From a phage: 64,000 nt of DNA. The notes under the pieces were generated by a model. That model did not search any database. It was given only the letters and a program-made list of their open reading frames with translations, and was not told the DNA's origin. Within the stretch, counting starts at the first letter, position 1. Each line of letters starts with the position of its first letter. Positions 1,945 to 49,159 of the stretch are shown here, in pieces. The position numbers and the translations under genes were made by a program. The stretch is taken from assembly GCA_012439925.1 (NCBI GenBank), contig GCA_012439925.1_4519.1; one strand, 5' to 3'.

Positions 1945-2469
1945 ATGTTAGTTTACCGCGTAGAACGTAGTTTTTGTACTCAACGTGAATCATTACCAGG
2001 AATTGCCATCGAAGACGGTAAAGCCGTCAGAATTTGGGAAACCTCTTGGAATAAAGAACCTCGCTCACCTTACGGTTGGTCTGGCACTGACAACTCTGAA
2101 GAAACATGGGAGTTCCTTGATAAACATGGAATACTCTCAGGTAACTTCTACCATCACGGCGACAACTATAATGTCCCTAATCGTCCTACAGTAAATGAAG
2201 ACAAACTCCTTGAACAAAATATCTTAAGATACCATAGAATTGAGCACACATTTGAATTGAACAAAGATTGGGCTCAAGAGTTCTATTTTGGATTTGAAAG
2301 TGTTGACGCGGTTTATGCATGGTTTGATGACCAGGTGGATGTTGAACTCTTGAAAGCTAAAGGATACTACATCGCGGTCTATGAAGCACCTGATTTCATA
2401 CTCGGAAGTTGTCAATTAATGTTTAGACGTTCATTGGCAGAACAAGTTGATTTTATTTTGCTAAAATGA
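1945..2469 (+). CDS. hypothetical protein
   Basis: 174-aa ORF with strong RBS GAGGAG; no recognisable motif. Confidence 0.55.
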   Translation: MLVYRVERSFCTQRESLPGIAIEDGKAVRIWETSWNKEPRSPYGWSGTDNSEETWEFLDKHGILSGNFYHHGDNYNVPNRPTVNEDKLLEQNILRYHRIEHTFELNKDWAQEFYFGFESVDAVYAWFDDQVDVELLKAKGYYIAVYEAPDFILGSCQLMFRRSLAEQVDFILLK

Positions 2470-2526
2470 TGTACAACAACTATGGTCTATGATACTATAG
2501 ACCTATCAAAACAAGAGGAGAATATT

Positions 2527-9326: not shown

Positions 9327-10262
9327 ATGTACAATATCAAATGCTTGTCCCAAGAAGAACAGTTAGAAGCTTACGGACTGGTTAAATCAGGCCAATGGAC
9401 TCGTCAGGAAATTGCTGATTACTTCAATATTTCCACCGACACTCTTCGTAAGATTGTTAAGAATTTTAAAGCTGAAGAGAAAGCCGCTGAATTTGAAGAC
9501 GAAGAACAGGTCCCAGAAAATAATGAACCTATTATTACAGGTCATCGTCCAGAAATCGTATGGAACGCGTCATCTAAATTTATTTCAATCATTGAAGGAC
9601 GCGTAGCATACAATGCGACCCCATCAAGTCATGCAAATTTTGAAGAAATTAAAGCTAATCTGGTCGCAGGAAACCTTAGTAAAGCTGTCGAACTTATTAA
9701 CATCAAGAAAGCTATTACTAAGTTTGTTGACGGTAATGTTACTATTGAAGGTGGTAGTTTATTTTATCAAGGTATAGAAATTCGTTCAGGACTGGTTAAT
9801 CGTATTATTGATTCCATGGAAAAAGGCGAAGACTTTAAATTCTATCTGCCGTTCCTTGAAAACCTGTTAGAAAACCCAAGCGAAAAAGCTGTACAACGTT
9901 TATTCGACTTCTTGGTTGCAAACGATATTGAAATCACTGAAGATGGGTATTTCTATGCGTGGAAAGTAGTTCGTAAAGACTATTTAGACTGCTATAGTGG
10001 TACATTTGATAACTCCCCAGGTAAAGTTGTTTCAATGCCTCGCACTCGAGTTAACGACGATGATACTCAAACCTGTTCTCGCGGTCTCCACGTTTGTGCT
10101 AAATCTTATATTCGCCACTTTGGTTCAAGCTCAGATAAAGTTGTTAAGGTTAAAGTTCATCCACGTGATGTTGTATCCATCCCAGTTGACTATGGTGATG
10201 CTAAGATGCGTACTTGTCGTTATGAAGTAATTTCAGACGTTACTGAATTATTTGCAGAATAA
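9327..10262 (+). CDS. rIIB: rIIB protein
   Basis: 311 aa (T4 rIIB 312 aa) immediately downstream of rIIA. Confidence 0.85.
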   Translation: MYNIKCLSQEEQLEAYGLVKSGQWTRQEIADYFNISTDTLRKIVKNFKAEEKAAEFEDEEQVPENNEPIITGHRPEIVWNASSKFISIIEGRVAYNATPSSHANFEEIKANLVAGNLSKAVELINIKKAITKFVDGNVTIEGGSLFYQGIEIRSGLVNRIIDSMEKGEDFKFYLPFLENLLENPSEKAVQRLFDFLVANDIEITEDGYFYAWKVVRKDYLDCYSGTFDNSPGKVVSMPRTRVNDDDTQTCSRGLHVCAKSYIRHFGSSSDKVVKVKVHPRDVVSIPVDYGDAKMRTCRYEVISDVTELFAE

Positions 10263-11095: not shown

Positions 11096-11125
11096 GTTTA
11101 CAACTAAGTAGGACTATGATATAGT
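11096..11125 (+). promoter_or_regulatory. T4-type early promoter with embedded inverted repeat
   Basis: GTTTAC 11096-11101; -10-like TATAGT near 11120; inverted repeat AGGACTA / TAGTCCT spans the -10. Confidence 0.5.
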
Positions 11126-11151
11126 AGTCCTATCTAAAAGAGGATAACATC

Positions 11152-11607: not shown

Positions 11608-11638
11608 GTTTACAACACAATAGGATTATGGTATAGTA
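11608..11638 (+). promoter_or_regulatory. T4-type early promoter-like element
   Basis: GTTTAC 11608-11613 followed by AGGATTATGGTATAGTAGTCCT, a variant of the cassette at 11096. Confidence 0.4.
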
Positions 11639-11666
11639 GTCCTACTTAAACATGAGGAATACAAAA

Positions 11667-11867
11667 ATGGCTAAGCTTTTTAAAGATGTTGAAATTGGTG
11701 AAAAATTTGTCCTGAATAATGGACAGCAGCTTATTCGTGTAGCTTCTATAGCTGGACAAACTCATAACTGCATCGCCCCAACGTGTTGGACCCGATTCTT
11801 TATCGAGGATGACACTGAATGTTTAACTGTCGAAGAGCTTTTTGAACGTTCTGATATGGCCGAATAA
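11667..11867 (+). CDS. hypothetical small protein
   Basis: Start MAKLFKD with RBS GAGGAA; 66 aa. Confidence 0.45.
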   Translation: MAKLFKDVEIGEKFVLNNGQQLIRVASIAGQTHNCIAPTCWTRFFIEDDTECLTVEELFERSDMAE

Positions 11868-11869
11868 AA

Positions 11870-11899
11870 TTGTACAAACTCTTGAGAGCAGAGTATAAT
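11870..11899 (+). promoter_or_regulatory. early promoter-like cassette with inverted repeat around TATAAT
   Basis: TTGTAC -35-like, TATAAT 11894-11899, flanked by GAGAGCA / TGCTCTC; near-identical cassette at 40193-40228. Confidence 0.45.
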
Positions 11900-11944
11900 G
11901 CTCTCATGGATTACAAAAAACATTAATCAATTGAGGAAATTAGC

Positions 11945-12391
11945 ATGTCCAAATATTTAACTCGTAAAGACCTTCTGGCAGTTGGCGGTGAAGTTGTTGC
12001 AGTAGTTCGTAATGGCGAATACGGTTCTGAAGTTTCTAAAGAGTTTCGTTCTCGTGAAGGTTTTTACTTCTTTGTTAAAGGTTCATCTGATTGGCGACAA
12101 GTGGCAGCACGATTCTTTGTAGGACGTCAACGTTCTAAACAAGGGTTGGATGCAATTCTTTCTCACATTCGTCAAGGCCGTTCGCAACTAGCCCGTACCA
12201 TGGGTACTAATAATATTGAATATGACGTAATCTTTGTTTCAGCCAAGAACATGAAACCCCTGACTACTGGTTATGGTAAAGGACAATTGGCTCTAGCGTT
12301 CACTCGCAACCATACATCAGAATATCAAACACTCACTGAAATGAACCGTCTTCTGGCCGATAATTTCAAATTTATTCTGCAGAGTTACTAA
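11945..12391 (+). CDS. ndd: nucleoid disruption protein
   Basis: 148 aa; strong similarity to T4 Ndd as recalled (FYVGxQRSKQG, SHIRQxRSQLART, [21 protein letters not shown], MNRxLADNFKF). Confidence 0.8.
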
Positions 12392-14136: not shown

Positions 14137-14158
14137 GGGAGCTTCGGCTCCCTTTTGT
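14137..14158 (+). terminator. intrinsic terminator after gene 52
   Basis: GGGAGCttcgGCTCCC followed by TTTT. Confidence 0.7.
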
Positions 14159-14179
14159 GCATTTTTTTCTCACAAAACA

Positions 14180-14208
14180 GTTTACATGTGCTTCAAACAT
14201 GATATTAT
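14180..14208 (+). promoter_or_regulatory. T4-type early promoter
   Basis: GTTTAC 14180-14185, 17-bp spacer, TATTAT 14203-14208; downstream TATAGACCTATCAAAACAA also occurs at 2495-2515. Confidence 0.55.
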
Positions 14209-14247
14209 AGACCTATCAAAACAAAACAGCCAAATTGGAGAAATAAA

Positions 14248-14880
14248 ATGTCTAAAGTTACTTACATCATCAAAGCTTCTGAAAACGCTCTGAATGAAAA
14301 AACTGCTGCAATAATGGTTTATATCATTAAGAACAACTTCACCACTGCTGCCAATGTCCGTGAAGCTCTGGAAGCAGAATACAGTGCATCAGTTGTTAAC
14401 TCTAACATTGGTGTATTGATTAAGAAAGGTTTAGTCGAAAAATCCGGTGATGGACTTGTAGCAACAGGCGAAGCAATGGATATTATCCAAAAAGCTGCAG
14501 ACCTCTTTGCCCAAGAAAATGCTCCAGAACTTCTTCAGAAACGTAACACCAGAAAAGCACGTGGAGTTACTCCTGAAATGCATGAATTAGCAAACTTTGT
14601 TTTTGAAAATATTAAAGATAAAGTTGAAGTTAAAGAAATTGGTGAAAACCGTAGTAACTTAGAAGTTCGATTCGCTAAACGAGTTCTAGGCATTCGCCAA
14701 ATTGAAATTCGACGAGATGGCGCTCTTAGAATCTTTGCATACAACATGTCAGAAACTGAATCAAAGCTGTTTACTTCTCTTGAAAATGATGTTAAGATTA
14801 AGATCGGTGGTAAATATACTTACATTGACTTCCCTAATGTGTCTAAAGAAATCATTACCCTTGTAACTAACGTACTGTGA
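14248..14880 (+). CDS. motA: middle transcription activator MotA
   Basis: 210 aa (T4 MotA 211 aa); N-terminal MSKVTYIIKAS...VVNSNIGVLIKKGLVEKSGDGL matches T4 MotA as recalled. Confidence 0.85.
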   Translation: MSKVTYIIKASENALNEKTAAIMVYIIKNNFTTAANVREALEAEYSASVVNSNIGVLIKKGLVEKSGDGLVATGEAMDIIQKAADLFAQENAPELLQKRNTRKARGVTPEMHELANFVFENIKDKVEVKEIGENRSNLEVRFAKRVLGIRQIEIRRDGALRIFAYNMSETESKLFTSLENDVKIKIGGKYTYIDFPNVSKEIITLVTNVL

Positions 14881-30833: not shown

Positions 30834-30857
30834 GGGAGACTTCGGTCTCCCTTTTGA
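30834..30857 (+). terminator. intrinsic terminator after gene 32
   Basis: GGGAGACttcgGTCTCCC followed by TTTT; identical hairpin at 45849. Confidence 0.7.
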
Positions 30858-35988: not shown

Positions 35989-37167
35989 ATGAGTACAGTT
36001 TTTAACACGCAACAAGTCGATGTTTTGAATGAACCGATGTTCTTTGGTTCTGGTCTTGGCCTCGCACGGTATGATATTCAGCGTCATAAAGTTTTCGAAG
36101 AACTTATAGAAAAATCCTTGTCATTTTTCTGGCGTCCAGAAGAGGTAAACTTGATGTTGGACTCTGCGCAGTTCAATAAGCTTCCTCAGTTCCAACAGGA
36201 CATCTTTACAAACAATCTTAAGTATCAATCATTATTAGATTCTATCCAAGGCAGGGCCCCATCTGCGGTACTTATGGCACTGATTTCTGACCCTTCATTA
36301 GATACATGGGTCGCAACATGGACATTCAGTGAAACTATTCACTCTCGTTCGTATACTCATATTATGCGAAATCTTTATACCGATCCATCGAAGGTATTTG
36401 ATGAAATTGTATTAGATGAAGCTATTATGAAACGCGCTGAATCCATTGGACGTTATTATGATGACGTTCTGATTAAAACCCGTGAATGGGAAAATGCTAA
36501 AGAAATTTTTAAGTGTTTTTCCGAAAATGAATATGATTTAGATGCATATTCAAATAGTCTTATGCACATGGAAGAATGTAAACATGACCTAATGAAGTCT
36601 CTTTATCTCTGTTTGCATGTTATCAACGCCTTAGAAGCTATTCGTTTTTACGTATCATTTGCATGTACTTTCAACTTCCATAAAAATATGGAAATTATGG
36701 AAGGCAATGCAAAGATTATGAAGTTCATTGCTCGTGACGAACAACTCCATCTCAAGGGTACTCAGTACATTATCCGTCAACTTCAATCTGGTACTGACGG
36801 TGATGAGTGGGTTCAAATTGCTAAAGAATGTGAACAAGAAGCAGTTGACATTTTTATGGAAGTAAATAGTCAAGAGAAGGAATGGGCTGCACACCTTTTT
36901 AAAGATGGTACATGTCCAGGTATCAATACGCAGAGTATGTGTGCTTTTGTTGATTACTTGACCGTGTCTCGTATGAAACAGTGTGGTTTGCCATGCCCAA
37001 TCACTGATGCTCCGACCAAGCATCCGTATCCTTGGATTCGTGAATATCTGAACTCTGATTTAGTTCAAGCAGCTCCTCAGGAAGTTGAAATCAGTTCTTA
37101 TCTTGTTGCACAAGTTGATAATGACGTAGACCAAAATGTAATCAATTCATACAAAAAATATTTCTAA
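35989..37167 (+). CDS. nrdB: aerobic ribonucleotide reductase small subunit, uninterrupted (no intron)
   Basis: 392 aa; di-iron ligand helices typical of R2; continuous ORF. Confidence 0.9.
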   Translation: MSTVFNTQQVDVLNEPMFFGSGLGLARYDIQRHKVFEELIEKSLSFFWRPEEVNLMLDSAQFNKLPQFQQDIFTNNLKYQSLLDSIQGRAPSAVLMALISDPSLDTWVATWTFSETIHSRSYTHIMRNLYTDPSKVFDEIVLDEAIMKRAESIGRYYDDVLIKTREWENAKEIFKCFSENEYDLDAYSNSLMHMEECKHDLMKSLYLCLHVINALEAIRFYVSFACTFNFHKNMEIMEGNAKIMKFIARDEQLHLKGTQYIIRQLQSGTDGDEWVQIAKECEQEAVDIFMEVNSQEKEWAAHLFKDGTCPGINTQSMCAFVDYLTVSRMKQCGLPCPITDAPTKHPYPWIREYLNSDLVQAAPQEVEISSYLVAQVDNDVDQNVINSYKKYF

Positions 37168-37171
37168 GGAC

Positions 37172-37192
37172 GGGACTTCGGTCCCACTTTAT
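37172..37192 (+). terminator. stem-loop / terminator after nrdB
   Basis: GGGACttcgGTCCC followed by ACTTTATT. Confidence 0.5.
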
Positions 37193-37193
37193 T

Positions 37194-37604
37194 ATGAAAG
37201 ATATTGCCGCCGAATATTCCTTTATTAAATATATAGAATTGGAGCTATTAGAAGATGCAACAATTAAAACCATTGATGCCCCTAATAAGAAAAATGTCAT
37301 ATACGCTATTGCTATAGATGACGAACTTGTGTATATTGGTAAAACCAAGAATTTAAAGAAACGCATTAACTATTATCGAACAGCCATAAATCGAAAAGAC
37401 CAGACTTCAGATTCAAGAAAATCACTTATGATTTTGGATGCCTTAATGCAAGGCAAAAAGGTTGAATTCTGGGCCCGCCAATGTTTTGACCTTTCAGTCA
37501 CTAACGAACTTGGTTCAATGACCATTGCAACAATGGACCTTGAAGAACCACTTTTTATCAAAAAGTTCAACCCGCCTTGGAATATCCAACATAAGAAAAA
37601 GTAG
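37194..37604 (+). CDS. denA: endonuclease II (GIY-YIG family)
   Basis: 136 aa as in T4; GIY-YIG motif VIYAIAIDDELVYIGKT...R. Confidence 0.85.
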   Translation: MKDIAAEYSFIKYIELELLEDATIKTIDAPNKKNVIYAIAIDDELVYIGKTKNLKKRINYYRTAINRKDQTSDSRKSLMILDALMQGKKVEFWARQCFDLSVTNELGSMTIATMDLEEPLFIKKFNPPWNIQHKKK

Positions 37605-37633
37605 TTTACATACCACAAGGATTGTGGTACAAT
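37604..37633 (+). promoter_or_regulatory. T4-type early promoter with embedded inverted repeat
   Basis: GTTTAC 37604-37609, TACAAT 37628-37633; inverted repeat CCACAA / TTGTGG. Confidence 0.55.
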
Positions 37634-37650
37634 TTAAAAAAACTAACTGA

Positions 37651-38784
<1,134 letters not shown>

Positions 38785-38786
38785 TG

Positions 38787-38816
38787 GTTTACAAACACCA
38801 AGGATGGTGTTACTAT
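38787..38816 (+). promoter_or_regulatory. T4-type early promoter
   Basis: GTTTAC 38787-38792, 18-bp spacer, TACTAT 38811-38816. Confidence 0.55.
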
Positions 38817-38846
38817 GGCTTTTATCAACAACACGAGGAGAAAATT

Positions 38847-39347
38847 ATGAATATGCAATTGATTACTAACGATATGGTTGTGGCAGCATTTGGTGATTCT
38901 ACAGATGGAATCCGAGTCTTTAAGAAAGGCCGTGCAGTCGGTTATCTTACAGACCTTCGTACTACTCTAGCGAAAAATGCTAAAAAGAAGTTAAAGCAAA
39001 AGGAATATTCAACACGTTACACCGAAGAGAAACGTGAAGCAATGCCGGAAGCAGTTAATGCTATGGTAGAATTTCTTCAAAACAATTTGACTAAATATGA
39101 CGCTAATGTGTTCATTAATATTAGTCAACCAAACGTACATATCGCAGGTATAAAATTCTACATTATTTGCGACCCTCTTACCGACAAATTCAACCGCCTC
39201 GGAATCTCAAGCCCGTATCATACAGCAGAAGAGTTGTGTGTATTGTTTGAATCGTACAAAATCCAGTGTGATGGTTTGAAAACCGTTCTTATCAATGGAT
39301 TATCCCGAGATGAAATCATTGAGATTATTAAAACATGCTTAAAGTAA
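38847..39347 (+). CDS. alc: Alc-like transcription termination factor (host transcription shutoff)
   Basis: Start trimmed to MNMQLITNDMVV with RBS GAGGAG; 166 aa (T4 Alc 167 aa); position between rnlA and pseT. Confidence 0.6.
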   Translation: MNMQLITNDMVVAAFGDSTDGIRVFKKGRAVGYLTDLRTTLAKNAKKKLKQKEYSTRYTEEKREAMPEAVNAMVEFLQNNLTKYDANVFINISQPNVHIAGIKFYIICDPLTDKFNRLGISSPYHTAEELCVLFESYKIQCDGLKTVLINGLSRDEIIEIIKTCLK

Positions 39348-39691
39348 ATCCGATTTATGCTATAGTAGCAGCTTTTGCTCTAGTTTCTACGGTAACAATA
39401 GTTGTCTTAAACAACAAAGTTGATTCGTTGAATACTGAATTAGCTTCTGTTAAAAAGACCGCTAAAAACAATGCTAAAGTATTAGACGACTTCAAAGCTC
39501 AATATCAGTCAATCGAAGAAATGACTTACAAGAATCGTGTTTTAGTTGACCAACTTAAGGCCGAAAATGAAAAGCTCCGTAAGGATTCGAAGAAGAAGAA
39601 CGTGGTGGCAAGTAAACCAGGATTGGTCGAAAAACAAATCAACAAGTCCTTCGATTCCTTTGCAGAAGACCTCAGGAAGCTCTCAGAATGA
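39335..39691 (+). CDS. i-spanin (inner-membrane spanin, pseT.3-like)
   Basis: N-terminal transmembrane helix followed by coiled-coil periplasmic domain; immediately precedes a lipoprotein ORF. Confidence 0.7.
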   Translation: MLKVNPIYAIVAAFALVSTVTIVVLNNKVDSLNTELASVKKTAKNNAKVLDDFKAQYQSIEEMTYKNRVLVDQLKAENEKLRKDSKKKNVVASKPGLVEKQINKSFDSFAEDLRKLSE

Positions 39692-39978
39692 TTAAATTAA
39701 CCGCAGTTGTATTATCTATTGGTATTTTGGCTGGATGTGCCCAGGATGTGCCCTTAAGCCCTAAAGAAACTTTACATCCGCCATGGCCTGAATCTATTGT
39801 TGAATATAACCAGAAATGGCAAGTAAAGGTTATTGATGGTAATCCATGGGTTGGAATGCCATTTGAAGACTCTCAAGAATTTCGTATCTGGTTAAACGAC
39901 GTAAAAAGATATGTACATGACCAGAAGACTATGATATGTTATTATCGTAGTGGTTTAAAAGAGGAAAAATGCCAATGA
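39688..39978 (+). CDS. o-spanin (outer-membrane lipoprotein, pseT.2-like)
   Basis: Signal peptide with lipobox LAGC; small proline-containing periplasmic domain; overlaps the i-spanin stop. Confidence 0.7.
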   Translation: MIKLTAVVLSIGILAGCAQDVPLSPKETLHPPWPESIVEYNQKWQVKVIDGNPWVGMPFEDSQEFRIWLNDVKRYVHDQKTMICYYRSGLKEEKCQ

Positions 39979-40193
39979 CTAAAGAACAGCATGAATACAT
40001 TAAAGGGCTTATCTATGAATCTGAAATGGCGGCTATGATTTATGGGCGCCAGATTCAACGATTAGAATCTTTGCCTCCGACTAATGACCGCTTGTTAGTT
40101 CAGTCTCGTGCTAATCTGAAAAATGAATATCAGAATAAGTGGGCAGTAGCGACTAAAGCTCTTCACGAGTATATTGAATCTTTAGTAAAATAG
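39969..40193 (+). CDS. hypothetical small protein
   Basis: 74-aa ORF overlapping the o-spanin stop. Confidence 0.45.
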   Translation: MPMTKEQHEYIKGLIYESEMAAMIYGRQIQRLESLPPTNDRLLVQSRANLKNEYQNKWAVATKALHEYIESLVK

Positions 40194-40228
40194 TTTACAA
40201 ACTCTCAGGAGCAGAGTATAATGCTCCT
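40193..40228 (+). promoter_or_regulatory. T4-type early promoter with inverted repeat around TATAAT
   Basis: GTTTAC 40193-40198, TATAAT 40217-40222, inverted repeat AGGAGCA / TGCTCCT; near-copy of 11870-11906. Confidence 0.55.
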
Positions 40229-40250
40229 ATGGATAATTGAGGAAATCTAA

Positions 40251-40549
40251 ATGAAAACATTACTAGAGAATTACATCAAACGGTCTGATGAGTATATTGA
40301 TATCTGCCGTGGAATGTCACTTGGCAATTATGACAAAGATGCAGCAAAGGCACTAGATGAAGCAGGTAAAGCTCTTCGTAAAGCTGCTAAAGAAAAAGGG
40401 TTGGATTTGCAACAACTCAAAAGTCATATGATTAAATTTATTTCTTCAAACGTTAGAAGTACGTCAATTAATAAAAACGTTGCTGAAATTAATAAAGACC
40501 GGCGCGAGCATAACATTCGTATTCTTGAAATTTTCTTAGGAATAAAATA

Positions 40550-40550
<1 letters not shown>
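40251..40550 (+). CDS. hypothetical protein
   Basis: 99-aa ORF, RBS GAGGAAA. Confidence 0.45.
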
Positions 40551-41636
<1,086 letters not shown>

Positions 41637-41637
<1 letters not shown>

Positions 41638-41828
41638 TGAAACGATTATATGAAGTGATTGAGGCCATAGAACAGCATAAAGAATATTTGTTTGTAGCCT
41701 GGCCTTTAGTAAATGGACAGTTCGGTATTGATGTGCTGGACTATGAGCATGAAGAACGTTTGGACGGTGGTATATTTGATAACGTCGACCAGGCAATTGA
41801 ATGGTTAAATGAAAACTATGTACGATAA
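41637..41828 (+). CDS. hypothetical small acidic protein
   Basis: 63-aa ORF, net charge about -9. Confidence 0.4.
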
Positions 41829-42033
41829 ACATCATGAAATCGAAGATGAAGCATACAAAATGCTTCGTAAACTAGTGGGACTTAATATGAGTCCTACATT
41901 AATCAACAAACTCGCAGGAATTCGTAATGATCTGAATACTCGTTACAAAGGCGAATATCATGTAGAGTTTGTTCCTGTAGGTGAACCGACCGAGCGATTT
42001 GTTGTTCGAGTTAAAGTAAATACTGTACACTGA
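41809..42033 (+). CDS. hypothetical small protein
   Basis: 74-aa ORF. Confidence 0.4.
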   Translation: MKTMYDKHHEIEDEAYKMLRKLVGLNMSPTLINKLAGIRNDLNTRYKGEYHVEFVPVGEPTERFVVRVKVNTVH

Positions 42034-42040
42034 GGTAATT

Positions 42041-42316
42041 ATGTTCCCAACTTATTCTGAAATTGTAAAGGTAGTCTTCAGTCAGATTATTGCTAATAAT
42101 ATGTTTGAAGTGCTTGATAATGCAGCCGAACTCAGAGTTCATGCTCAACTAACTCATGTACTCAATGCTTTGCTCCCAGACCAAGTAGATTCTATTGCTA
42201 TTACTCTTCTCCCTGGGTCTGCACACGTCATAGTGGTATTTGATCTTGACGGCGATTTAGTTATCCAATGTGATATCAATTTCGGTACACAAAAAATTGA
42301 ATGCAAAGCAATTTAA
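42041..42316 (+). CDS. hypothetical small acidic protein
   Basis: 91-aa ORF with RBS GAGGTAA. Confidence 0.45.
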   Translation: MFPTYSEIVKVVFSQIIANNMFEVLDNAAELRVHAQLTHVLNALLPDQVDSIAITLLPGSAHVIVVFDLDGDLVIQCDINFGTQKIECKAI

Positions 42317-42318
42317 TG

Positions 42319-42348
42319 GTTTACAACATGGTGGAGTTGTGATACTAT
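42319..42348 (+). promoter_or_regulatory. T4-type early promoter
   Basis: GTTTAC 42319-42324, 18-bp spacer, TACTAT 42343-42348. Confidence 0.55.
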
Positions 42349-42376
42349 AACTCTACCAACAAATGAGGAAATAGAA

Positions 42377-42613
42377 ATGCTAAGTGAAAACCCAATTACA
42401 GTACACGAATTTCAGATTAAAGTAAAAGAATTTGCTCAAGCACTCATCAATAAAGTGTCTGAACGTTTCCAAGATGCAACATTACGAGTTATTCAAGAAT
42501 CTCCACGTTCTTTTCTCATAATCGTTAATCCTAAAGATGGTGACCAAATTACTAATCTTAAATTAGGCAGTGATGGTCTTGTTGAAGCAACTCGAGTATA
42601 TGGAACACTATAA
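42377..42613 (+). CDS. hypothetical small protein
   Basis: 78-aa ORF, RBS GAGGAAA. Confidence 0.45.
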   Translation: MLSENPITVHEFQIKVKEFAQALINKVSERFQDATLRVIQESPRSFLIIVNPKDGDQITNLKLGSDGLVEATRVYGTL

Positions 42614-42733
42614 TGAGAGCTATCTCATTACTATCGAGAATGGTCATAAATCTGAGCACTACCAACTTAGCCTATCTAATCCGGTTAAAGGTATTGTTGA
42701 ATCAGAATCTGTTTATATCTCCTAAGGATTGTT

Positions 42734-43726
42734 ATGTTACCTGTCATCAGAAAACTTATTTCTCCAAAAGAACTGGCTGAGATTATTCCTTTGTCGGAAG
42801 CTTACGCATCACAAGTGGCTTCTCATCGCGAACAAGTTAATTCGATTATGAACGGTGAAGACCCACGCAAACTTATTGTTGTAGGTCCTTGTTCAATTCA
42901 TGACCCTATTGCTGCTGTTGAATACGGCAAACGTCTGGCTGAACTTCAAACTCGTCTTCCTAATGTTCTGTTAGTGATGCGCGTTTATTTTGAAAAGCCT
43001 CGAACTACCGTAGGTTGGAAAGGTCTTGTAAATGATCCATATCTTGACGGAAGTTTTGATATGAACCACGGTCTTATAGTTGCACGAACATTGTGTCGTA
43101 AACTTCTACGTATGGGACTTCCATTAGCAACTGAAGTATTAGACCCATTCACGATTAAGTATCTTTCTGGTATTTTCTCATGGGTTGCTATTGGCGCCCG
43201 TACGACTGAAAGTCAGACACATCGTGAAATTGCTTCAGGTCTACCGATGTGCGTAGGCTTCAAGAACGCAACCAATGGTTCTATTAAAGTAGCTACAGAC
43301 GCGATGTATAGTGCCGCCTGGCCTCATCGGTATATGGGTATGGACGTCGATGGTACTGTAGGCATTGTTGAAGCTGAAGGTAATCAGAATACGCATATCG
43401 TATTGCGTGGCGGGACCAACGGCCCGAACTATCATTCTTCTGATATTCAAGAAGCTTCTAACAAAGCAAGGGCAGTAGGTCTGAATCATTATGTAATGGT
43501 TGACTGTAGCCATGCAAACGCTGATGGGCATTATAGCAATCAAATTGGTATTGGTAAAAATTTAGCAGCTAATGATTTGGTCAAAGGAATTATGATAGAA
43601 TCATTCCTACATGAAGGAAATCAAAAAATTTCCGATAATATGTCCTATGGCGTTTCCGTTACCGATGCGTGCATCAGTTGGGAACAAACTAAAGAGCTGT
43701 TAACTTATATTAATAAGGTTCAATAA
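42734..43726 (+). CDS. class I 3-deoxy-D-arabino-heptulosonate-7-phosphate (DAHP) synthase, AroG/AroF/AroH-like
   Basis: 330 aa; signature motifs GPCSIHD, RVYFEKPRTTVGWKGL, GARTTESQ, DCSHAN, ESFLHEGNQ and DACISWE, with metal ligands (Cys, His, Glu, Asp) in place; shorter than E. coli AroG (350 aa), including at the N-terminus. Confidence 0.8.
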   Translation: MLPVIRKLISPKELAEIIPLSEAYASQVASHREQVNSIMNGEDPRKLIVVGPCSIHDPIAAVEYGKRLAELQTRLPNVLLVMRVYFEKPRTTVGWKGLVNDPYLDGSFDMNHGLIVARTLCRKLLRMGLPLATEVLDPFTIKYLSGIFSWVAIGARTTESQTHREIASGLPMCVGFKNATNGSIKVATDAMYSAAWPHRYMGMDVDGTVGIVEAEGNQNTHIVLRGGTNGPNYHSSDIQEASNKARAVGLNHYVMVDCSHANADGHYSNQIGIGKNLAANDLVKGIMIESFLHEGNQKISDNMSYGVSVTDACISWEQTKELLTYINKVQ

Positions 43727-44307
43727 TGAAAGCTAGCACATACCTTCAGATTGCATATCTGATTTCTCAAGAATCAAAATGTTGTTCATGGAAAGTTGGC
43801 GCAGTCATTGAAAAAGATGGGCGCATTATTTCTACTGGGTATAACGGTTCACCTGCAGGTGGCGTTAACTGTTGCGAACATGCATCTGAAAATGGTTGGT
43901 TGAAGAATAAACCAATCCCAGTCATCGTTGCTGGGCATAAAGAAGGCACTACAGCATTTGGACGGGCCGATAATTTTGTTTTGGCTAAAGAACATCGGGC
44001 TGCTCATAGTGCATGGTCTGCCAATAACGAAATCCATGCGGAACTGAATGCAATTTTGTTTGCAGCTCGTAAAGGTAATTCTATTGAAGGTGCTACGTTG
44101 TATACGACACTTTCTCCATGTCCTGATTGCACTAAAGCTATTACACAGTCAGGTATTAAAAAGGTTGTATATGCAGAATTATATGACCGATCTCCTGAAA
44201 ATTGGGCAGACATTCTTAAACAAGCTGGTATTGAAGTAATTCAGTACTCTCGTAATAATCTTCGTTCTCTGAATTGGGAACAAATCCGAAACTTTTGTGG
44301 TGAATAA
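43726..44307 (+). CDS. cd: dCMP deaminase
   Basis: 193 aa as in T4; zinc-binding HAE and SPCPDC motifs. Confidence 0.95.
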   Translation: MKASTYLQIAYLISQESKCCSWKVGAVIEKDGRIISTGYNGSPAGGVNCCEHASENGWLKNKPIPVIVAGHKEGTTAFGRADNFVLAKEHRAAHSAWSANNEIHAELNAILFAARKGNSIEGATLYTTLSPCPDCTKAITQSGIKKVVYAELYDRSPENWADILKQAGIEVIQYSRNNLRSLNWEQIRNFCGE

Positions 44308-44308
44308 T

Positions 44309-44605
44309 ATGATTTTAACTGAACAAGAAACTATGGTTCTTCGTGAACGTATTAAAACTATTCTGTCTGTAGGCGTTCATTGTGTTGTATTTGAAAAGGC
44401 TAACGGTGATGTTCGTACGATGTTTGCCTCCCGTGATGAACTTGAAGTCAAATACGAAAATAACAATCCGGCAACAGAAGTTCGTTCTGAACCTCGTGAA
44501 TCAGTTCGAGCATTCGATACCAAGTTAGGTCAGTGGCGTTCTTTCCGCCTTGATAAAGTAATTTCGGTTGATGGTACTCCGGTAGAACGTTTGCTTCTTA
44601 TGTAA
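44309..44605 (+). CDS. hypothetical protein
   Basis: 98 aa from ATG just after the cd stop. Confidence 0.45.
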   Translation: MILTEQETMVLRERIKTILSVGVHCVVFEKANGDVRTMFASRDELEVKYENNNPATEVRSEPRESVRAFDTKLGQWRSFRLDKVISVDGTPVERLLLM

Positions 44606-44662
44606 TATGCTTTACGAATAGTATGGTATTATTAATCTATCGTCAAACAACAAGGAAATAAG

Positions 44663-44995
44663 ATGTCTGAAGTACAACTCCCAATTCGTGCTGTTGGTGA
44701 ATATGTCATTCTGGTTTCTGAACCCGCTCAAGCAGGTGATGAAGAAGTTACCGAATCAGGACTTGTGATTGGTAAACGTGTTCAAGGTGAAGTTCCTGAA
44801 CTATGTATAGTTCATTCTGTAGGTCCTGATGTTCCTGAAGGTTTTGTTGAAGTCGGTGATTTGACTCCACTACCAGTTGGACAAATTCGAAATGTTCCAC
44901 ATCCATTTGTGGCTTTAGGACTTAAACAACCTAAAGAAATTAAACAGAAATTCGTAACATGCCACTATAAAGCTATTCCGTGTCTTTATAAGTGA
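44663..44995 (+). CDS. 31: co-chaperonin gp31 (GroES analogue for capsid folding)
   Basis: 110 aa; near-identical to T4 gp31 as recalled. Confidence 0.9.
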
Positions 44996-45119
44996 TATAA
45001 ATAACTATATGAAGAGAACACTCTTCTAAGCGGTAGCCTACAACTGAGAGACTTGTCGAAAGAAGGTGAAATTCAGACGAACGTGGCTACTAAATATTAT
45101 CTCGAATTGAGAATTTAAA

Positions 45120-45368
45120 ATGATTAAACAATTACAACACGCTCTTGAACTGCAACGAAACGCATGGAATAACGGTCACGAAAACTACGGCGCGTCAATT
45201 GATGTTGAAGCCGAAGCACTGGAAATCCTGCATTATTTCAAACATCTGAACCCGGTACAGGCAGCTTTGGCCTCTGAACTGGAAGCAAAAGATGAACTGA
45301 AATATGCTAAGCCTTTGGCTTCTGCAGCTCGTAAAGCAGTACGTCATTTTGTTATTACCCTTAAATAA
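45120..45368 (+). CDS. rIII: lysis inhibition accessory protein rIII
   Basis: 82 aa as in T4; MIKQLQxALELQRNAWNNGHENYGASIDVEAEALEIL matches T4 rIII as recalled. Confidence 0.85.
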   Translation: MIKQLQHALELQRNAWNNGHENYGASIDVEAEALEILHYFKHLNPVQAALASELEAKDELKYAKPLASAARKAVRHFVITLK

Positions 45369-45663
45369 GTTTTAGGTGATTCGCTACCTTAAGTGCGGCT
45401 AGAAAATCGAGGAGCCGTCGAACTGTCTGATTAATGATTTGCGAATCATTATAGTTTTAAGGCCCCGGCAGTTTTACGGTGTACCTCTTGAATGTATTTT
45501 GTACTATCACGCGTCAGAAAAAGGTTATCTGTCTAAGTCGTGGTTGGTATGATGACGGGTTTATGGTTATCCTGTCGTTAAATATCCAAAACCTATGTTC
45601 CCCTTGAGGGCTTGCGCAGGCAATGTCAATAAGTCCTGCATTTTCATTTAAAGAGAATTTATA

Positions 45664-45843
45664 ATGGCAAAACAAGCTAAAGCAAAGAAAGCAGTTGAAA
45701 AGAAAGTTGATGGTACCTCTAAACGCGCTGGATACAAGCGTGGGTCGAACTCTCGTATTAATCAAACAGTTGAGAAGATCATGCGCAGAGCACGTGCAGT
45801 TCTTCGAGATGATGCTTCTCGTTTTGGAAAGGTTGTTGCATAA
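45664..45843 (+). CDS. small highly basic protein (59 aa)
   Basis: Not in ORF track; Lys/Arg-rich (MAKQAKAKKAVEKKVDGTSKRAGYKRGSNSR...); ends 5 bp before a strong terminator. Confidence 0.45.
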   Translation: MAKQAKAKKAVEKKVDGTSKRAGYKRGSNSRINQTVEKIMRRARAVLRDDASRFGKVVA

Positions 45844-45848
45844 TTTTA

Positions 45849-45872
45849 GGGAGACTTCGGTCTCCCTTTTGT
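45849..45872 (+). terminator. intrinsic terminator
   Basis: GGGAGACttcgGTCTCCC followed by TTTT; identical to the hairpin at 30834. Confidence 0.7.
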
Positions 45873-45903
45873 GCGTTTAGGGCAGAAAAAGTTTAAAAAA
45901 GAT

Positions 45904-45932
45904 GTTTACTCTCCTGTAGGATGTGTTACTAT
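45904..45932 (+). promoter_or_regulatory. T4-type early promoter
   Basis: GTTTAC 45904-45909, 17-bp spacer, TACTAT 45927-45932; shares GGATGTGTTA-TATAGACTT with the cassette at 30884. Confidence 0.55.
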
Positions 45933-45974
45933 AGACTTGTACCACCTAATCAATAAAACAACCTGGAGAACAAA

Positions 45975-46343
45975 ATGAAAATCAATCTGAACTCATACAT
46001 CAAATGTAAAGACCACGATGGTTATAAAGCTATCGAAATTAAAGAATTCCAGTGGATGTTATACAAAGAGCAATTTGAGTTCGTAGGTTGTATGACCCCT
46101 GAAGGTCCTTCTGATGATTTCTCTTGGAAAATTGTGTTAGCAAACTTTTTCACAGGTGACACATACGAATTAAAAACTATTATTACAGGTAAAATTCGCT
46201 CAGAAACATATGTTGACGAAGAAACTGGTTACTCTGAAGATGTCACATGGTATCAAAATGGACGCATTACAGCAGATAACCTGATCGAAAAAATGAAAGC
46301 CAAAGGTGTTTTAAATTTAGACAATTGGATTAAAGTTGCATAA
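45975..46343 (+). CDS. hypothetical protein
   Basis: 122-aa ORF with RBS GGAGAA. Confidence 0.5.
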   Translation: MKINLNSYIKCKDHDGYKAIEIKEFQWMLYKEQFEFVGCMTPEGPSDDFSWKIVLANFFTGDTYELKTIITGKIRSETYVDEETGYSEDVTWYQNGRITADNLIEKMKAKGVLNLDNWIKVA

Positions 46344-46347
46344 AACA

Positions 46348-46376
46348 GTTTACTTTGGTACAGGTTATGTTATTAT
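46348..46376 (+). promoter_or_regulatory. T4-type early promoter with embedded inverted repeat
   Basis: GTTTAC 46348-46353, TATTAT 46371-46376; inverted repeat GGTACAGG / CCTGTACC flanks the -10. Confidence 0.55.
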
Positions 46377-46417
46377 AGACCTGTACCAACAAACAACTTA
46401 AACATCTGGAGAATAAA

Positions 46418-46783
46418 ATGAACTACATCAACTTCGAACGTAAATATGTTTCTAACGGTATCGCTGGTTCTTCTGAAGTTATTTGCTTATGGAAACATAA
46501 AAATGGTTCAGTATGTGAAATTGAGCAGTATATGACTCCTAATTACGTTTATATGCGATTTGAAAATGGCATCACGGTTTCAATCACGATGGAAGGTTCC
46601 AACTTCAAAATTGCATTAGATGACGATTTCCGTCAACGTGATTTAGGTACTCATCCTTGCTGGAACGGTGTTAATCGTAAACTTCTGGTTAAAACTTGGA
46701 TTCGTCATATCCTGAGTAACCGAGCTAAACCTGAACACCTGGAAGCAATCTTTGATGTAGTTCTGAACGAATTCGATATCTAA
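46418..46783 (+). CDS. hypothetical protein
   Basis: 121-aa ORF with RBS GGAGAA. Confidence 0.5.
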   Translation: MNYINFERKYVSNGIAGSSEVICLWKHKNGSVCEIEQYMTPNYVYMRFENGITVSITMEGSNFKIALDDDFRQRDLGTHPCWNGVNRKLLVKTWIRHILSNRAKPEHLEAIFDVVLNEFDI

Positions 46784-46790
46784 TTTAATT

Positions 46791-46806
46791 GGGAGCTTCG
46801 GCTCCC
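46791..46806 (+). other. TTCG-loop hairpin directly upstream of an RBS (no U-tract)
   Basis: GGGAGCttcgGCTCCC followed by ACTGAGGAAATT-ATG. Confidence 0.5.
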
Positions 46807-46818
46807 ACTGAGGAAATT

Positions 46819-47433
46819 ATGTTTAAAGTTAATACTTTTTATAAAATGAATTTTAAAAATGGGGATATTACTCCACGCCTTAAAAACATGTTCTCATATG
46901 ACCTTATCGAGCCTTTTGAAGTTTTAGAAGTTACTGATGCTGGCTCAGTTTGTGAAATTAGAACTTCTGAAGGTAAAATTTATCAGGCTGGTGTTGGTAA
47001 ATTCAGTAATTGTTTTACTTTAATATTCTCGACTGATTTAGATGAGCATTTTATTGAATGTCCTAACCCTAAGGTCCATGAAGTTCCACAACAAGAAACT
47101 AAGAAAAATGGCCCGCATGAATATACGAAGGTTGAAACTCCTCACGGCGATATGTGGCGTCATAACTCTCCTTTCGGAAGTAAAGGAACATTTGCTCAAC
47201 TGCCTAAACCGTATGACGATGAAAAATACATCGTCGCCTTTTTATCTGAACAGGGTACTCAAGACCGTGGATGTCAACGAAGTGGTTTACTAAGTGAACT
47301 TGAAGCTCATAACCAAGCACGTGAATTCGTTGAGAAAAATCCTGGTTCTGAAGCTCTAGTCATGAAAGCAATTACTCAATATATCACTGCTCAACCTGTT
47401 GTTCATCCGGTAGAAATTAATTTCATTAAGTAG
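46819..47433 (+). CDS. hypothetical protein
   Basis: Start trimmed to MFKVNTFYK (RBS GAGGAAA); 204 aa. Confidence 0.5.
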   Translation: MFKVNTFYKMNFKNGDITPRLKNMFSYDLIEPFEVLEVTDAGSVCEIRTSEGKIYQAGVGKFSNCFTLIFSTDLDEHFIECPNPKVHEVPQQETKKNGPHEYTKVETPHGDMWRHNSPFGSKGTFAQLPKPYDDEKYIVAFLSEQGTQDRGCQRSGLLSELEAHNQAREFVEKNPGSEALVMKAITQYITAQPVVHPVEINFIK

Positions 47434-47463
47434 TTTACATCCAAGGACGGATTAGAGTATAAT
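47434..47463 (+). promoter_or_regulatory. T4-type early promoter
   Basis: GTTTAC 47434-47439, 18-bp spacer, TATAAT 47458-47463; similar to the cassette at 353. Confidence 0.55.
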
Positions 47464-47487
47464 GATTTCTTTAGTAAGTGGAAAAAT

Positions 47488-47685
47488 ATGAAATTTTTAA
47501 TAGCACAAACAGTCCAATTAAAAGGTGTTGGAATTCCTGGGGTGATTTTTAAAGTTCTCCCTGAATTTAAAACCGCCGCTGGAATTATCAATGAAGCGTA
47601 TGCTGTTCAATGGGTTGATTGGACTTCTGACATACGTATGGGTAAAGAGTTATCTCCTATTAAAGGGTTGAAACATGTTGAATAA
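47488..47685 (+). CDS. hypothetical small protein
   Basis: 65-aa ORF. Confidence 0.4.
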   Translation: MKFLIAQTVQLKGVGIPGVIFKVLPEFKTAAGIINEAYAVQWVDWTSDIRMGKELSPIKGLKHVE

Positions 47686-47887
47686 ATTAATCCAGAAATT
47701 GTTAGGTATAGAAATGGTTGAAGTTACGTATCGTGTGACTGATGTAAGCCCATGGGCCCGAAAAGTTGAACCATATACTAAAACAATTAAAATGCTGAAA
47801 TATGACGGTGGATTATCTATCAAAGACCGTCTACCGGCTTATGGTCATTGGGCTGATGTTGAAATTATAAGTGTTAAAGATGTCTGA
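47675..47887 (+). CDS. hypothetical small protein
   Basis: 70-aa ORF overlapping its neighbours. Confidence 0.4.
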   Translation: MLNKLIQKLLGIEMVEVTYRVTDVSPWARKVEPYTKTIKMLKYDGGLSIKDRLPAYGHWADVEIISVKDV

Positions 47888-48338
47888 GTTAGAGATTAGA
47901 AGCAATTTTAGATGGCCGTCATGTGCATTAAGTAATTTTGCCCAGTGGCCTTTCGTTATGGATGGTATTCAATTCGGAGGTCTTGAAGGATTTCTCCAAG
48001 GATGTAAGGTGAAAAATGTTGAACAACAAAGACGTATATTTAGGCTGTCAGGACTGGCCGCACAGCAAGCTGGAAGGTCTTATGCAAGAGCTCAGGACCA
48101 TGGGACTCTCTTCTGGTTAGGAGTTCCATTTTCAAGATACTCTGAAGCATGGAAAGAATTATATACAAATGCATATTTTGAAGCAGCGATCCAAAACAAG
48201 GGGTTTCGCGATGCCTTACAAGCCTCTAAAGGAAAAATTTTGAAGCACAGCATGGCCAGCCACCTAACAAAAGATGATACAATATTAACTGAAGCTGAAT
48301 TTATTGATGTGTTAAACCTATTAAGAGACTCTTTATGA
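47871..48338 (+). CDS. NADAR (YbiA/DUF1768-like) domain protein
   Basis: 155 aa; LSNFAQWPFVMDG...GLEGFLQ resembles the E. coli YbiA core FSNFAAWPIKVDG...SEHYFQ. Confidence 0.5.
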   Translation: MLKMSELEIRSNFRWPSCALSNFAQWPFVMDGIQFGGLEGFLQGCKVKNVEQQRRIFRLSGLAAQQAGRSYARAQDHGTLFWLGVPFSRYSEAWKELYTNAYFEAAIQNKGFRDALQASKGKILKHSMASHLTKDDTILTEAEFIDVLNLLRDSL

Positions 48339-49159
48339 AGCCTACTATTTTGACTGATATTGATGGTGTATGTTTAAGCTGGCAATCTGGACTTCCTTAT
48401 TTTGCCCAAAAATATAATCTTCCATTAGAACATATTTTAAAAATGATTCAGGACGAAAAATTTATTTCTCCTGGTAAACTATTCAATACCGATGATAACC
48501 TCGGTAAACAATTAATAGAAAAATATAATCGCTCTGATTTTATTCGTTACTTAGCGCCTTATTCGGATGCTCTTCGAGTTATCAATAAACTAAAAGAAGA
48601 CTATAATTTTGTAGCCGTGACGGCGCTAGGTGATTCAATTGATGCTCGATTGAATAGACAATTTAATTTGAATGCTTTGTTCCCAGGCGCTTTCTCTGAA
48701 GTAATGATGTGTGGTCATGATTCTTCAAAGGAACAATTATTCGAACTAGCTAAAACAAAATACAACGTGATTTGTTACGTTGACGATTTAGCTCATCACT
48801 GTGACCATGCGGCAGAAATTCTTAATGTACCGATTTATTGGTTGGCTCGTGGTGAACGTGATGCTATTCCTCGTACTGCACAACGTGTACACACGTGGGA
48901 TGATATTGAATCTCGTTTGGTTCTGCCTAAGAATAATTCAGATTCAGATCGTGAAGACCTTTTAAAACGATTGGCGGATTTGCTTAAAGAATCTGGTGCA
49001 ACAAGTCCAGGTGCATGGCCTAATCAAATTGGTGGCCCCTCGACAACACGTACTCCATATACCTGGCGAACCCCAGGACCAACTGATATGCAGCCGTGGT
49101 GGACGATTCAAAACTTTCCTTTAGATTCGTCTAAATGGACTTGGTCTATAAATTGTTAA
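48335..49159 (+). CDS. HAD-superfamily hydrolase, possible 5'(3')-deoxyribonucleotidase, with unusual C-terminal extension
   Basis: 274 aa; HAD motif I ILTDIDGV and motif IV-like CYVDDL; C-terminal 80 aa are low-complexity and W/P-rich. Confidence 0.5.
   Translation: MKPTILTDIDGVCLSWQSGLPYFAQKYNLPLEHILKMIQDEKFISPGKLFNTDDNLGKQLIEKYNRSDFIRYLAPYSDALRVINKLKEDYNFVAVTALGDSIDARLNRQFNLNALFPGAFSEVMMCGHDSSKEQLFELAKTKYNVICYVDDLAHHCDHAAEILNVPIYWLARGERDAIPRTAQRVHTWDDIESRLVLPKNNSDSDREDLLKRLADLLKESGATSPGAWPNQIGGPSTTRTPYTWRTPGPTDMQPWWTIQNFPLDSSKWTWSINC

Follow-up and report, generated by a model that had tools for sequence, protein, structure and literature searches.

The stretch of DNA analysed here (64,000 nucleotides, hereafter the window) is assigned to the genome of a Mosigvirus, i.e., an RB69-like T4-type coliphage, and the 2-kb stretch around the cassettes described below showed 97–99% identity with many Mosigvirus (RB69-like, Tevenvirinae) coliphages. 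Its early genes run on the + strand. The gene content near position 11870 comprises rIIB, denB, small ORFs, ndd, ac and gp52, and that near position 40193 nrdB, denA, rnlA, alc, pseT.3-.1, pseT and cd. An Rfam search of the window gave zero family matches.

Both positions hold a cassette lying in a short intergenic gap, with the stop codon of an upstream ORF on one side and the Shine-Dalgarno (SD) sequence and ATG of the next ORF on the other. Each cassette is predicted to be a strong early promoter of the T4 type, with a stem-loop of 7–8 bp encoded in the same spacer, −10 box and discriminator (Table 1), and cassettes of this kind are packed into the ~55–75 nt between an early-gene stop codon and the SD/ATG of the following gene. 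At 11870 (cassette 1), the −35 box starts 2 nt past the stop codon of ORF 11652..11867 and is non-consensus, so that an earlier note on this DNA, made from the letters alone, was wrong in reading GTTTAC there. At 40193 (cassette 2), the pseT.1-like ORF 39969..40193 overlaps the −35 box by one base, the end of its stop codon being the first base of the box. The 20 nt that precede the −35 box have an A+T content of 65% at 11870 (…gaataaaa) and 85% at 40193 (…tagtaaaata). The five leading bases of the cassette 1 −10 box occupy the loop and its final T opens the 3′ arm, and the ndd SD falls outside the stem. The predicted folds have energies of −13.9 kcal/mol (z = −3.0) for cassette 1 and −12.2 kcal/mol (z = −2.6) for cassette 2.

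Along the 39-nt stretch that starts with the TAC of the −35 box and runs to ATGGAT, five positions distinguish the two copies, every one of them in an arm. Four of these differences make up two compensated pairs, whereas the fifth disrupts the outermost pair. The copies are alike again from the SD (AATTGAGGAAAT), and the proteins encoded after them are unrelated: Ndd in one case and, in the other, a 99-aa ORF which, like the 63-aa ORF next to it, has no T4 counterpart between pseT.1 and pseT. We read the two sites as dispersed paralogous copies within one Mosigvirus genome. The near-identity of the copies and the paired arm substitutions that keep the stem around the −10 box, both pointed out in the earlier note, were thus recovered.

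Table 1. Promoter cassettes, their parts and canonical terminators in the window.
Feature	Sequence	Position	Strand	Remarks
Cassette 1, −35 hexamer	TTGTAC	11870–11875	+	two mismatches to GTTTAC
Cassette 1, 5′ arm	TGAGAGCA	11883–11890	+	within the promoter spacer
Cassette 1, loop	GAGTATAA	11891–11898	+	8 nt
Cassette 1, −10 hexamer	TATAAT	11894–11899	+	18-nt spacer from −35
Cassette 1, 3′ arm	TGCTCTCA	11899–11906	+	
SD and ATG (11945) of ndd	TTGAGGAAAT	11929..11947	+	PF06591, E=2e-89
Cassette 2, −35 hexamer	GTTTAC	40193–40198	+	
Cassette 2, 5′ arm	AGGAGCA	40207–40213	+	
Cassette 2, −10 hexamer	TATAAT	40217–40222	+	inside the loop; N18 spacer
Cassette 2, 3′ arm	TGCTCCT	40222–40228	+	
SD and ATG (40251) of 99-aa ORF	TTGAGGAAAT	40238..40253	+	
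Paralogous cassette, member 1	GTTTAC...TAGGACTA atga TATAG TAGTCCTA	11096..11140	+	8-bp stem round −10
Paralogous cassette, member 2	TAGGATTA / TAGTCCTA	11608..11650	+	8 bp, one T·G
Cassette with stem round −10	GGTCTA/TAGACC	2469..2510	+	
Cassette with 11-bp stem round −10		42319..42365	+	two G·U; orthologue of T4 Pe133295
Cassette with 11-bp stem round −10	TTGGTACAGGT/ACCTGTACCAA	46348..46395	+	−19.5 kcal/mol, z=−4.4
Cassette with 13-bp stem	TTCTCCTCTGGTT/AACCAGAGGAGAA	1890..1947	+	−23.9 kcal/mol, z=−5.95
Terminator	GGGAGC-TTCG-GCTCCC-TTTT	14137–14152		followed by a promoter without embedded hairpin
Terminator (two copies)	GGGAGAC-TTCG-GTCTCCC-TTTT	30834–30851 and 45849–45866		followed by a promoter without embedded hairpin

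The exact motif GTTTAC-N17-18-TAnnAT occurs 13 times on the + strand of the window and never on the − strand, for 0.67 occurrences expected. With relaxed hexamers or spacing we curated 18 promoter sites, so that the count of at least 17 plus-strand promoters given previously holds for relaxed criteria but not for the strict motif. We also fetched 86 loci from diverse T4-type phages, taken from the surroundings of cd and gp52 and totalling 1.55 Mb; in this wider set the early strand carries 384 occurrences of the relaxed motif and the opposite strand 45. The sites are located in front of genes and the T4 orthologue of the 42319 site is the promoter annotated as Pe133295 in the T4 record. Strand bias and orthology alike support the prediction, already advanced from the letters, that these cassettes are T4-type early promoters. 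In RB69, 57 early promoters have been predicted, with hairpins unmentioned (Nolan et al. 2006).

A repeat flanking the −10 box is present at 8 of the 18 window promoters (1890, 2469, 11096, 11608, 11870, 40193, 42319 and 46348), in agreement with the initial remark that many of them carry a repeat enclosing this box. We evaluated these repeats with a mismatched-partner control in which the spacer of each promoter was compared with the 25 nt downstream of other promoters, a control that preserves composition and any position-specific conservation. Within the window, pairing each spacer with the 25 nt downstream of its own promoter gave a longest Watson-Crick run of 5.78 on average, compared with 4.12 for the downstream regions of other promoters (permutation p<5e-5), and the predicted fold z-scores of the hairpins ranged from −2.6 to −5.95. 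Perfect repeats of 7 bp or longer across the −10 box were found in 33% of 237 unique cassettes versus 4.5% of mismatched pairs. At the level of clusters (95 clusters, 86 loci), such a repeat was found in 26%, versus 4% in the null, whose maximum was 13%.

Copies of the focal cassette (the one at 11870 and 40193) occur at 2–4 places per Mosigvirus genome, with related copies in four other genera. We collected a family of 16 distinct sequences from IMG/VR, searched with a pattern in which the arms were left free, and from GenBank phages, and aligned them without gaps. The family spans five genera, with Mosigvirus, Dhakavirus, Gaprivervirus, Tequatrovirus and unclassified Tevenvirinae named, and its members have different genes downstream. 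Five of the eight stem pairs have changed on both sides. Paired cells amount to 96.1%, whereas shuffles give 85.2±1.5 and sliding the partner gives no more than 59%, and the covariation score of 0.476 (versus 0.238) was reached by none of 500 shuffles. Among the inner seven pairs, every non-Watson-Crick cell is a G·U, bridging G-C and A-U states. Multi-member clusters of the wider set show alternatives on both sides at 36 of 183 stem positions. Together, the covariation in the focal family and the both-side changes in the wider clusters indicate that the predicted stem is maintained by compensatory substitution; what had been proposed from two copies, with an alignment of all cassettes as the suggested check, therefore extends to the 16 members of the family. 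An alternative hairpin within the spacer of the focal cassettes (ACTCT/AGAGT) was discarded: the family does not preserve the pair that closes it (columns 13 and 21), which makes the stem embracing the −10 box the preferred one.

The cassettes at 11096 and 11608 are direct repeats 512 nt apart with a small ORF between them, and the 11870 cassette follows 262 nt after the latter, which places three cassettes in less than 800 nt beside ndd. Some promoters contain 7-bp hairpins wholly within the spacer, with short G/A-rich loops, such as TACCACA-agga-TGTGGTA (37604–37633) and AACACCA-agga-TGGTGTT (38787–38816), and a GGA-type motif recurs mid-spacer in many promoters. As a general class, these spacer-internal hairpins (353, 37604 and 38787) were rejected, their enrichment being weak (12.7% versus 7.5%, with a null maximum of 16.8%). 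In the T4 record (NC_000866), positions 133300–133313, which are positions 9381–9394 of the locus that we fetched, are flagged as "inverted complement of previously reported sequence". This 14-nt stretch is exactly the loop of Pe133295, TTGTGATATTATAG, which holds the −10 box between the arms GGTAGAG and CTCTACC. The flag could reflect an old sequencing artefact or a flipped variant.

Taking the usual transcription start as 6–8 nt past the −10 box, the start expected for these promoters is the last base of the 3′ arm or a position just past it; in cassette 1 (~7 nt past the box) it is the final base of the arm. A transcript initiated there would lack the hairpin, which could accordingly be present only in DNA or in transcripts that arrive from upstream, and the exclusion of the hairpin from the promoter's own mRNA deduced in the earlier note remains the expectation.

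The presence of the hairpin depends on the architecture of the junction. The window contains three near-identical canonical terminators (followed by TTTTG), each ~50 nt upstream of an early promoter, and these terminator-plus-promoter units also seem to be repeated. The embedded hairpin is absent from all three promoters with a canonical terminator upstream and from the sole window promoter without an upstream gene on the same strand, these four having folds of only −3 to −5.5 kcal/mol. It is present at 10–11 of the 13 promoters that abut an upstream stop codon, with −8 to −24 kcal/mol; the abutting promoters 47433 and 53259 have weak folds only. We extended this comparison to 236 cassettes, counting as embedded the folds of −8 kcal/mol or stronger. 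They were found in 38.5% of 135 abutting cassettes, in 0% of 42 terminator-preceded ones and in 13.6% of the remainder, and the dependence was retained at cluster level (Mann-Whitney p=0.004, Fisher p=0.007). Embedded hairpins are almost restricted to junctions that abut a stop codon and have no separate upstream terminator. A separate upstream terminator and a promoter-embedded hairpin at a compact junction are thereby suggested to be alternative layouts.

The focal cassettes belong to a class already described, the promoter-early stem-loops (PeSLs), so that their kind is known. PeSLs were reported in the pseudo-T-even coliphages RB49 and phi1 as intergenic elements in which an early promoter is combined with a stem-loop, with five subclasses according to the position of the latter, overlap with the −10 box ranking among the two most frequent (Arbiol et al. 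2010, PMC2839356). This agrees with the resemblance to PeSLs that the earlier note had pointed out. The focal cassettes have the same intergenic place, an A/T-rich stretch upstream, boxes with ~17 nt spacing, a stem overlapping the −10 box and repeated copies. Also shared with the RB49/phi1 elements are the order of the parts (stop codon, A/T-rich stretch, −35/−10, stem-loop, SD and ATG), the G·T pairs in the stems, the repetition before unrelated small genes in hyperplastic regions and the variable ORFs flanked by direct repeats of the cassette. However, the promoters are T4-type (GTTTAC...TAnnAT) here and near-perfect sigma-70 promoters (TTGACA...TATAAT) in RB49 and phi1, and the stems are of mixed composition (GAGAGCA, AGGAGCA and similar) instead of polyG/polyC. 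Since the focal cassettes have neither the polyG...polyC stem nor the near-consensus pair of TTGACA and TATAAT boxes, they are analogues of the T-even type and not homologues of the RB49 elements. PeSLs have subsequently been extended to T4/PST and KVP40/nt-1 (Comeau et al. 2014, PMC4122927). The T4/PST elements share with those of the window the consensus TTTACW-N17-TAYWAT, a proposed dual promoter-terminator role and their genome neighbourhoods, the ndd region being an example of exchange there, whereas the published drawings place their stems immediately upstream of the promoter instead of around the −10 box (PMC4122927). Our literature search found no paper that joins PeSL and RB69 or describes PeSLs in RB69-like phages.

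Extended early transcripts of T4 have historically been called delayed-early RNA. It has been reported that T4 early transcripts extend through downstream genes (PMC2988021), and an embedded hairpin would form only in RNA that reads through in this way from upstream early promoters. It would be transcribed, and hence selectable, only where upstream transcription has not already been terminated, and the observed distribution suggests that it acts on RNA reading through from upstream rather than on DNA. In such RNA, the hairpin would mark the 3′ side of the upstream cistron and do the work that terminator hairpins do at roomier junctions. It might attenuate the read-through, as has been demonstrated for one RB49 PeSL stem-loop, which cut reporter expression as strongly as rrnB T1 (PMC2839356); the stem in that assay was a G/C-rich one from RB49 and none of those in the window. 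Alternatively, it might block 3′-to-5′ decay after a cleavage in the downstream leader. The hairpins resemble rho-independent terminators in being short stem-loops at the end of a cistron and in a distribution complementary to that of true terminators, but their stems are weaker and A/T-richer. A classical rho-independent terminator was rejected as a reading: none of the stems is followed by a U-tract (ATGGAT follows at the focal cassettes), which makes classical intrinsic termination unlikely, and a consensus terminator scan of positions 36000–48500 found no terminator-like site at any promoter hairpin. A literature search for transcript-end maps of this phage, T4 or RB69 found none. Overall, we consider that these elements are probably paralogous PeSL-type cassettes whose hairpin acts on read-through RNA.

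The earlier note had left the choice between read-through RNA and a role at the DNA level, and the second deserves attention. The repeat could work independently of RNA, as a cruciform or as a fold in single-stranded DNA during replication or recombination, modulating promoter melting or recombination/inversion. An inverted repeat without mismatches folds just as well on either strand, and as DNA, and the arms are indeed perfect on both strands. Wobble asymmetry, which we considered as a way of telling RNA from DNA, had to be abandoned, since it was neutral when all clusters were pooled (18 G·T versus 19 A·C; 3 versus 4 in an earlier strict version) and exclusively G·U in the focal family alone; the pooled symmetry is what would be expected if both strands matter. 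A DNA-level role would also accommodate the loop of Pe133295 once reported inverted in T4, the ORF insertion flanked by cassettes in the phage UGJNEcP1 (see below) and the RB49 PeSL crossovers mapped in or next to the stem-loop (PMC2839356). Nevertheless, it gives no reason for hairpins to disappear where a terminator lies upstream (0% versus 38.5%), and this dependence on junction type favours read-through RNA. Moreover, all the inner mismatches of the focal family are G·U on the sense strand, synteny breaks are not enriched at cassette junctions (0.56 versus 0.54, p=0.40), and none of 80 hairpin cassettes in the 1.55 Mb of related loci had an inverted-loop variant. Stems of 7–8 bp with 8-nt loops would be expected to form cruciforms poorly, which also counts against a DNA-level role. 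We therefore give this role a small though real chance, so that of the two options only read-through RNA retains our preference. It could still be that the arms occasionally flip the −10 loop and switch the promoter off, as the note in the T4 record hints.

The hairpin might also have no function. Cassettes would spread by duplication and recombination and their arms would be matched by templated (quasipalindrome) correction, a mutational mechanism known from T4, instead of by selection. Several observations would fit: the cassettes clearly recur and move, the compensated changes sit side by side in clusters, and pooling gave equal numbers of G·T and A·C. We find such a by-product quite improbable, because arms of unrelated sequence have arisen at the same place in no fewer than 20 independent cassette clusters, hairpin presence is tied to junction architecture, and the G·U intermediates fit stepwise compensation and not one-step templating. 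A palindromic operator, bound over the −10 box by a dimeric phage or host protein that would shut early promoters off, is very improbable: the repeat is centred on that box and the shut-off mechanism of T4 early promoters is incompletely understood (PMC3014915), but the arms differ completely between cassettes (GGTCTA, TAGGACTA, TGAGAGCA, TTGGTACAGGT and others), covary within the focal family instead of staying conserved, and vary in length, with loops from 8 to more than 30 nt.

In the cassette at 1890, the stem encloses both the −10 box and the start site, and its 3′ arm is the SD of the gene 1945..2469. In read-through RNA, this SD has a predicted unpaired probability of 0.00, and in RNA started at the promoter of the cassette itself, of 0.85. 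Translation-occluding leader hairpins with an internal promoter have been described for the T4 genes e, soc, 49 and I-TevI (Uzan & Miller 2010, PMC3014915), and their logic is matched exactly by the 1890 cassette and by several clusters in relatives, where the 3′ arm holds the SD: the promoter lies inside the hairpin, the long RNA folds and the RNA of the internal promoter lacks the 5′ arm. However, the internal promoter is early here and late (or middle) in the known cases, and the SD is not sequestered at 11870 and 40193. At 11870, the SD has a predicted unpaired probability of 0.53 whether or not the upstream part of the RNA is included. The cassettes of one cluster (cluster 10), located ~5 kb upstream of cd in other genera, covary and have the same design as the 1890 cassette; their position corresponds to the alc/rnlA junction of the window.

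A global occlusion of the SD in read-through RNA was rejected, as the means were 0.366 and, in mismatched controls, 0.357. Extreme cases of SD occlusion are enriched (21 clusters versus 13.5±2.7) and anti-SD motifs are about twofold enriched in spacers. A general junction code can be imagined, by which the promoter would be written as a hairpin insulating the upstream cistron wherever there is no room for a terminator and, in ~15–20% of clusters (e.g., 1890), the 3′ arm would be the SD, so that translation of the gene would be confined to its own immediate-early transcript, and extended early or middle transcripts running across the gene would leave it silent. We regard this generalization as doubtful; if it holds, early genes would be subject to a previously undescribed layer of temporal control.

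These results extend the PeSL concept to RB69-like phages, which find wide use in phage therapy and as models for polymerase and replication. With respect to the original PeSL papers, they add quantitative covariation evidence for the maintenance of the stem, the RB49/phi1 paper containing no covariation analysis (the word "compensatory" appears in it 0 times), as well as the either/or relation between embedded hairpins and canonical terminators. The ~60-nt junctions of T4-type genomes are dense and multi-purpose, which matters for annotation and engineering, and edits to an early promoter's spacer or discriminator may also have consequences for the gene upstream. The biology is otherwise that expected for the T4-type phage group.

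The recurrence of the same ~40–85 nt cassette before unrelated genes would, as a side effect, provide short homology for the occasional gain or loss of the genes that it flanks. In RB49 and phi1, PeSL cassettes recombined and excised ORFs as mini-circles; promoter activity, terminator activity and mini-circles have been demonstrated in these two phages only, by reporter assays and inverse PCR (PMC2839356). The earlier note had also suggested that the cassettes may mark recombination hotspots. Across genera, a tblastn test of synteny breaks at 56 junctions gave the non-enrichment already mentioned, 0.56 being the value for cassette junctions and 0.54 that for the others, in a test that is probably saturated because small ORFs lose detectable similarity. 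Among 11 Mosigvirus loci we distinguished nine breaks, two of which fall at cassettes, including a replacement that ends at the 16678 cassette. The other seven involve homing endonucleases, an intron, a tail fibre, small replacements or deletions away from cassettes and a DAHP synthase gene. The association among close relatives is thus anecdotal, and with so small a sample we do not call the cassettes hotspots.

The second break at a cassette is found in the Escherichia phage UGJNEcP1 (positions 14470–14880 of the fetched locus). Between gp52 and motA there is an additional ORF of 71 aa with a direct copy of the ~85-nt 14180 cassette on each side, the SD and ATGTCTAAA (the first three codons) included. 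The insertion site corresponds to positions 14171–14256 of the window. This matches the PeSL-plus-ORF architecture exactly and clearly exemplifies a gene insertion flanked by cassettes. The DAHP synthase gene (window 42734–43726, 330 aa, PF00793, E=5e-75), an auxiliary metabolic gene between cd.2 and cd, is missing in Shigella phage JK36 through a 1.1-kb indel located away from any promoter cassette.
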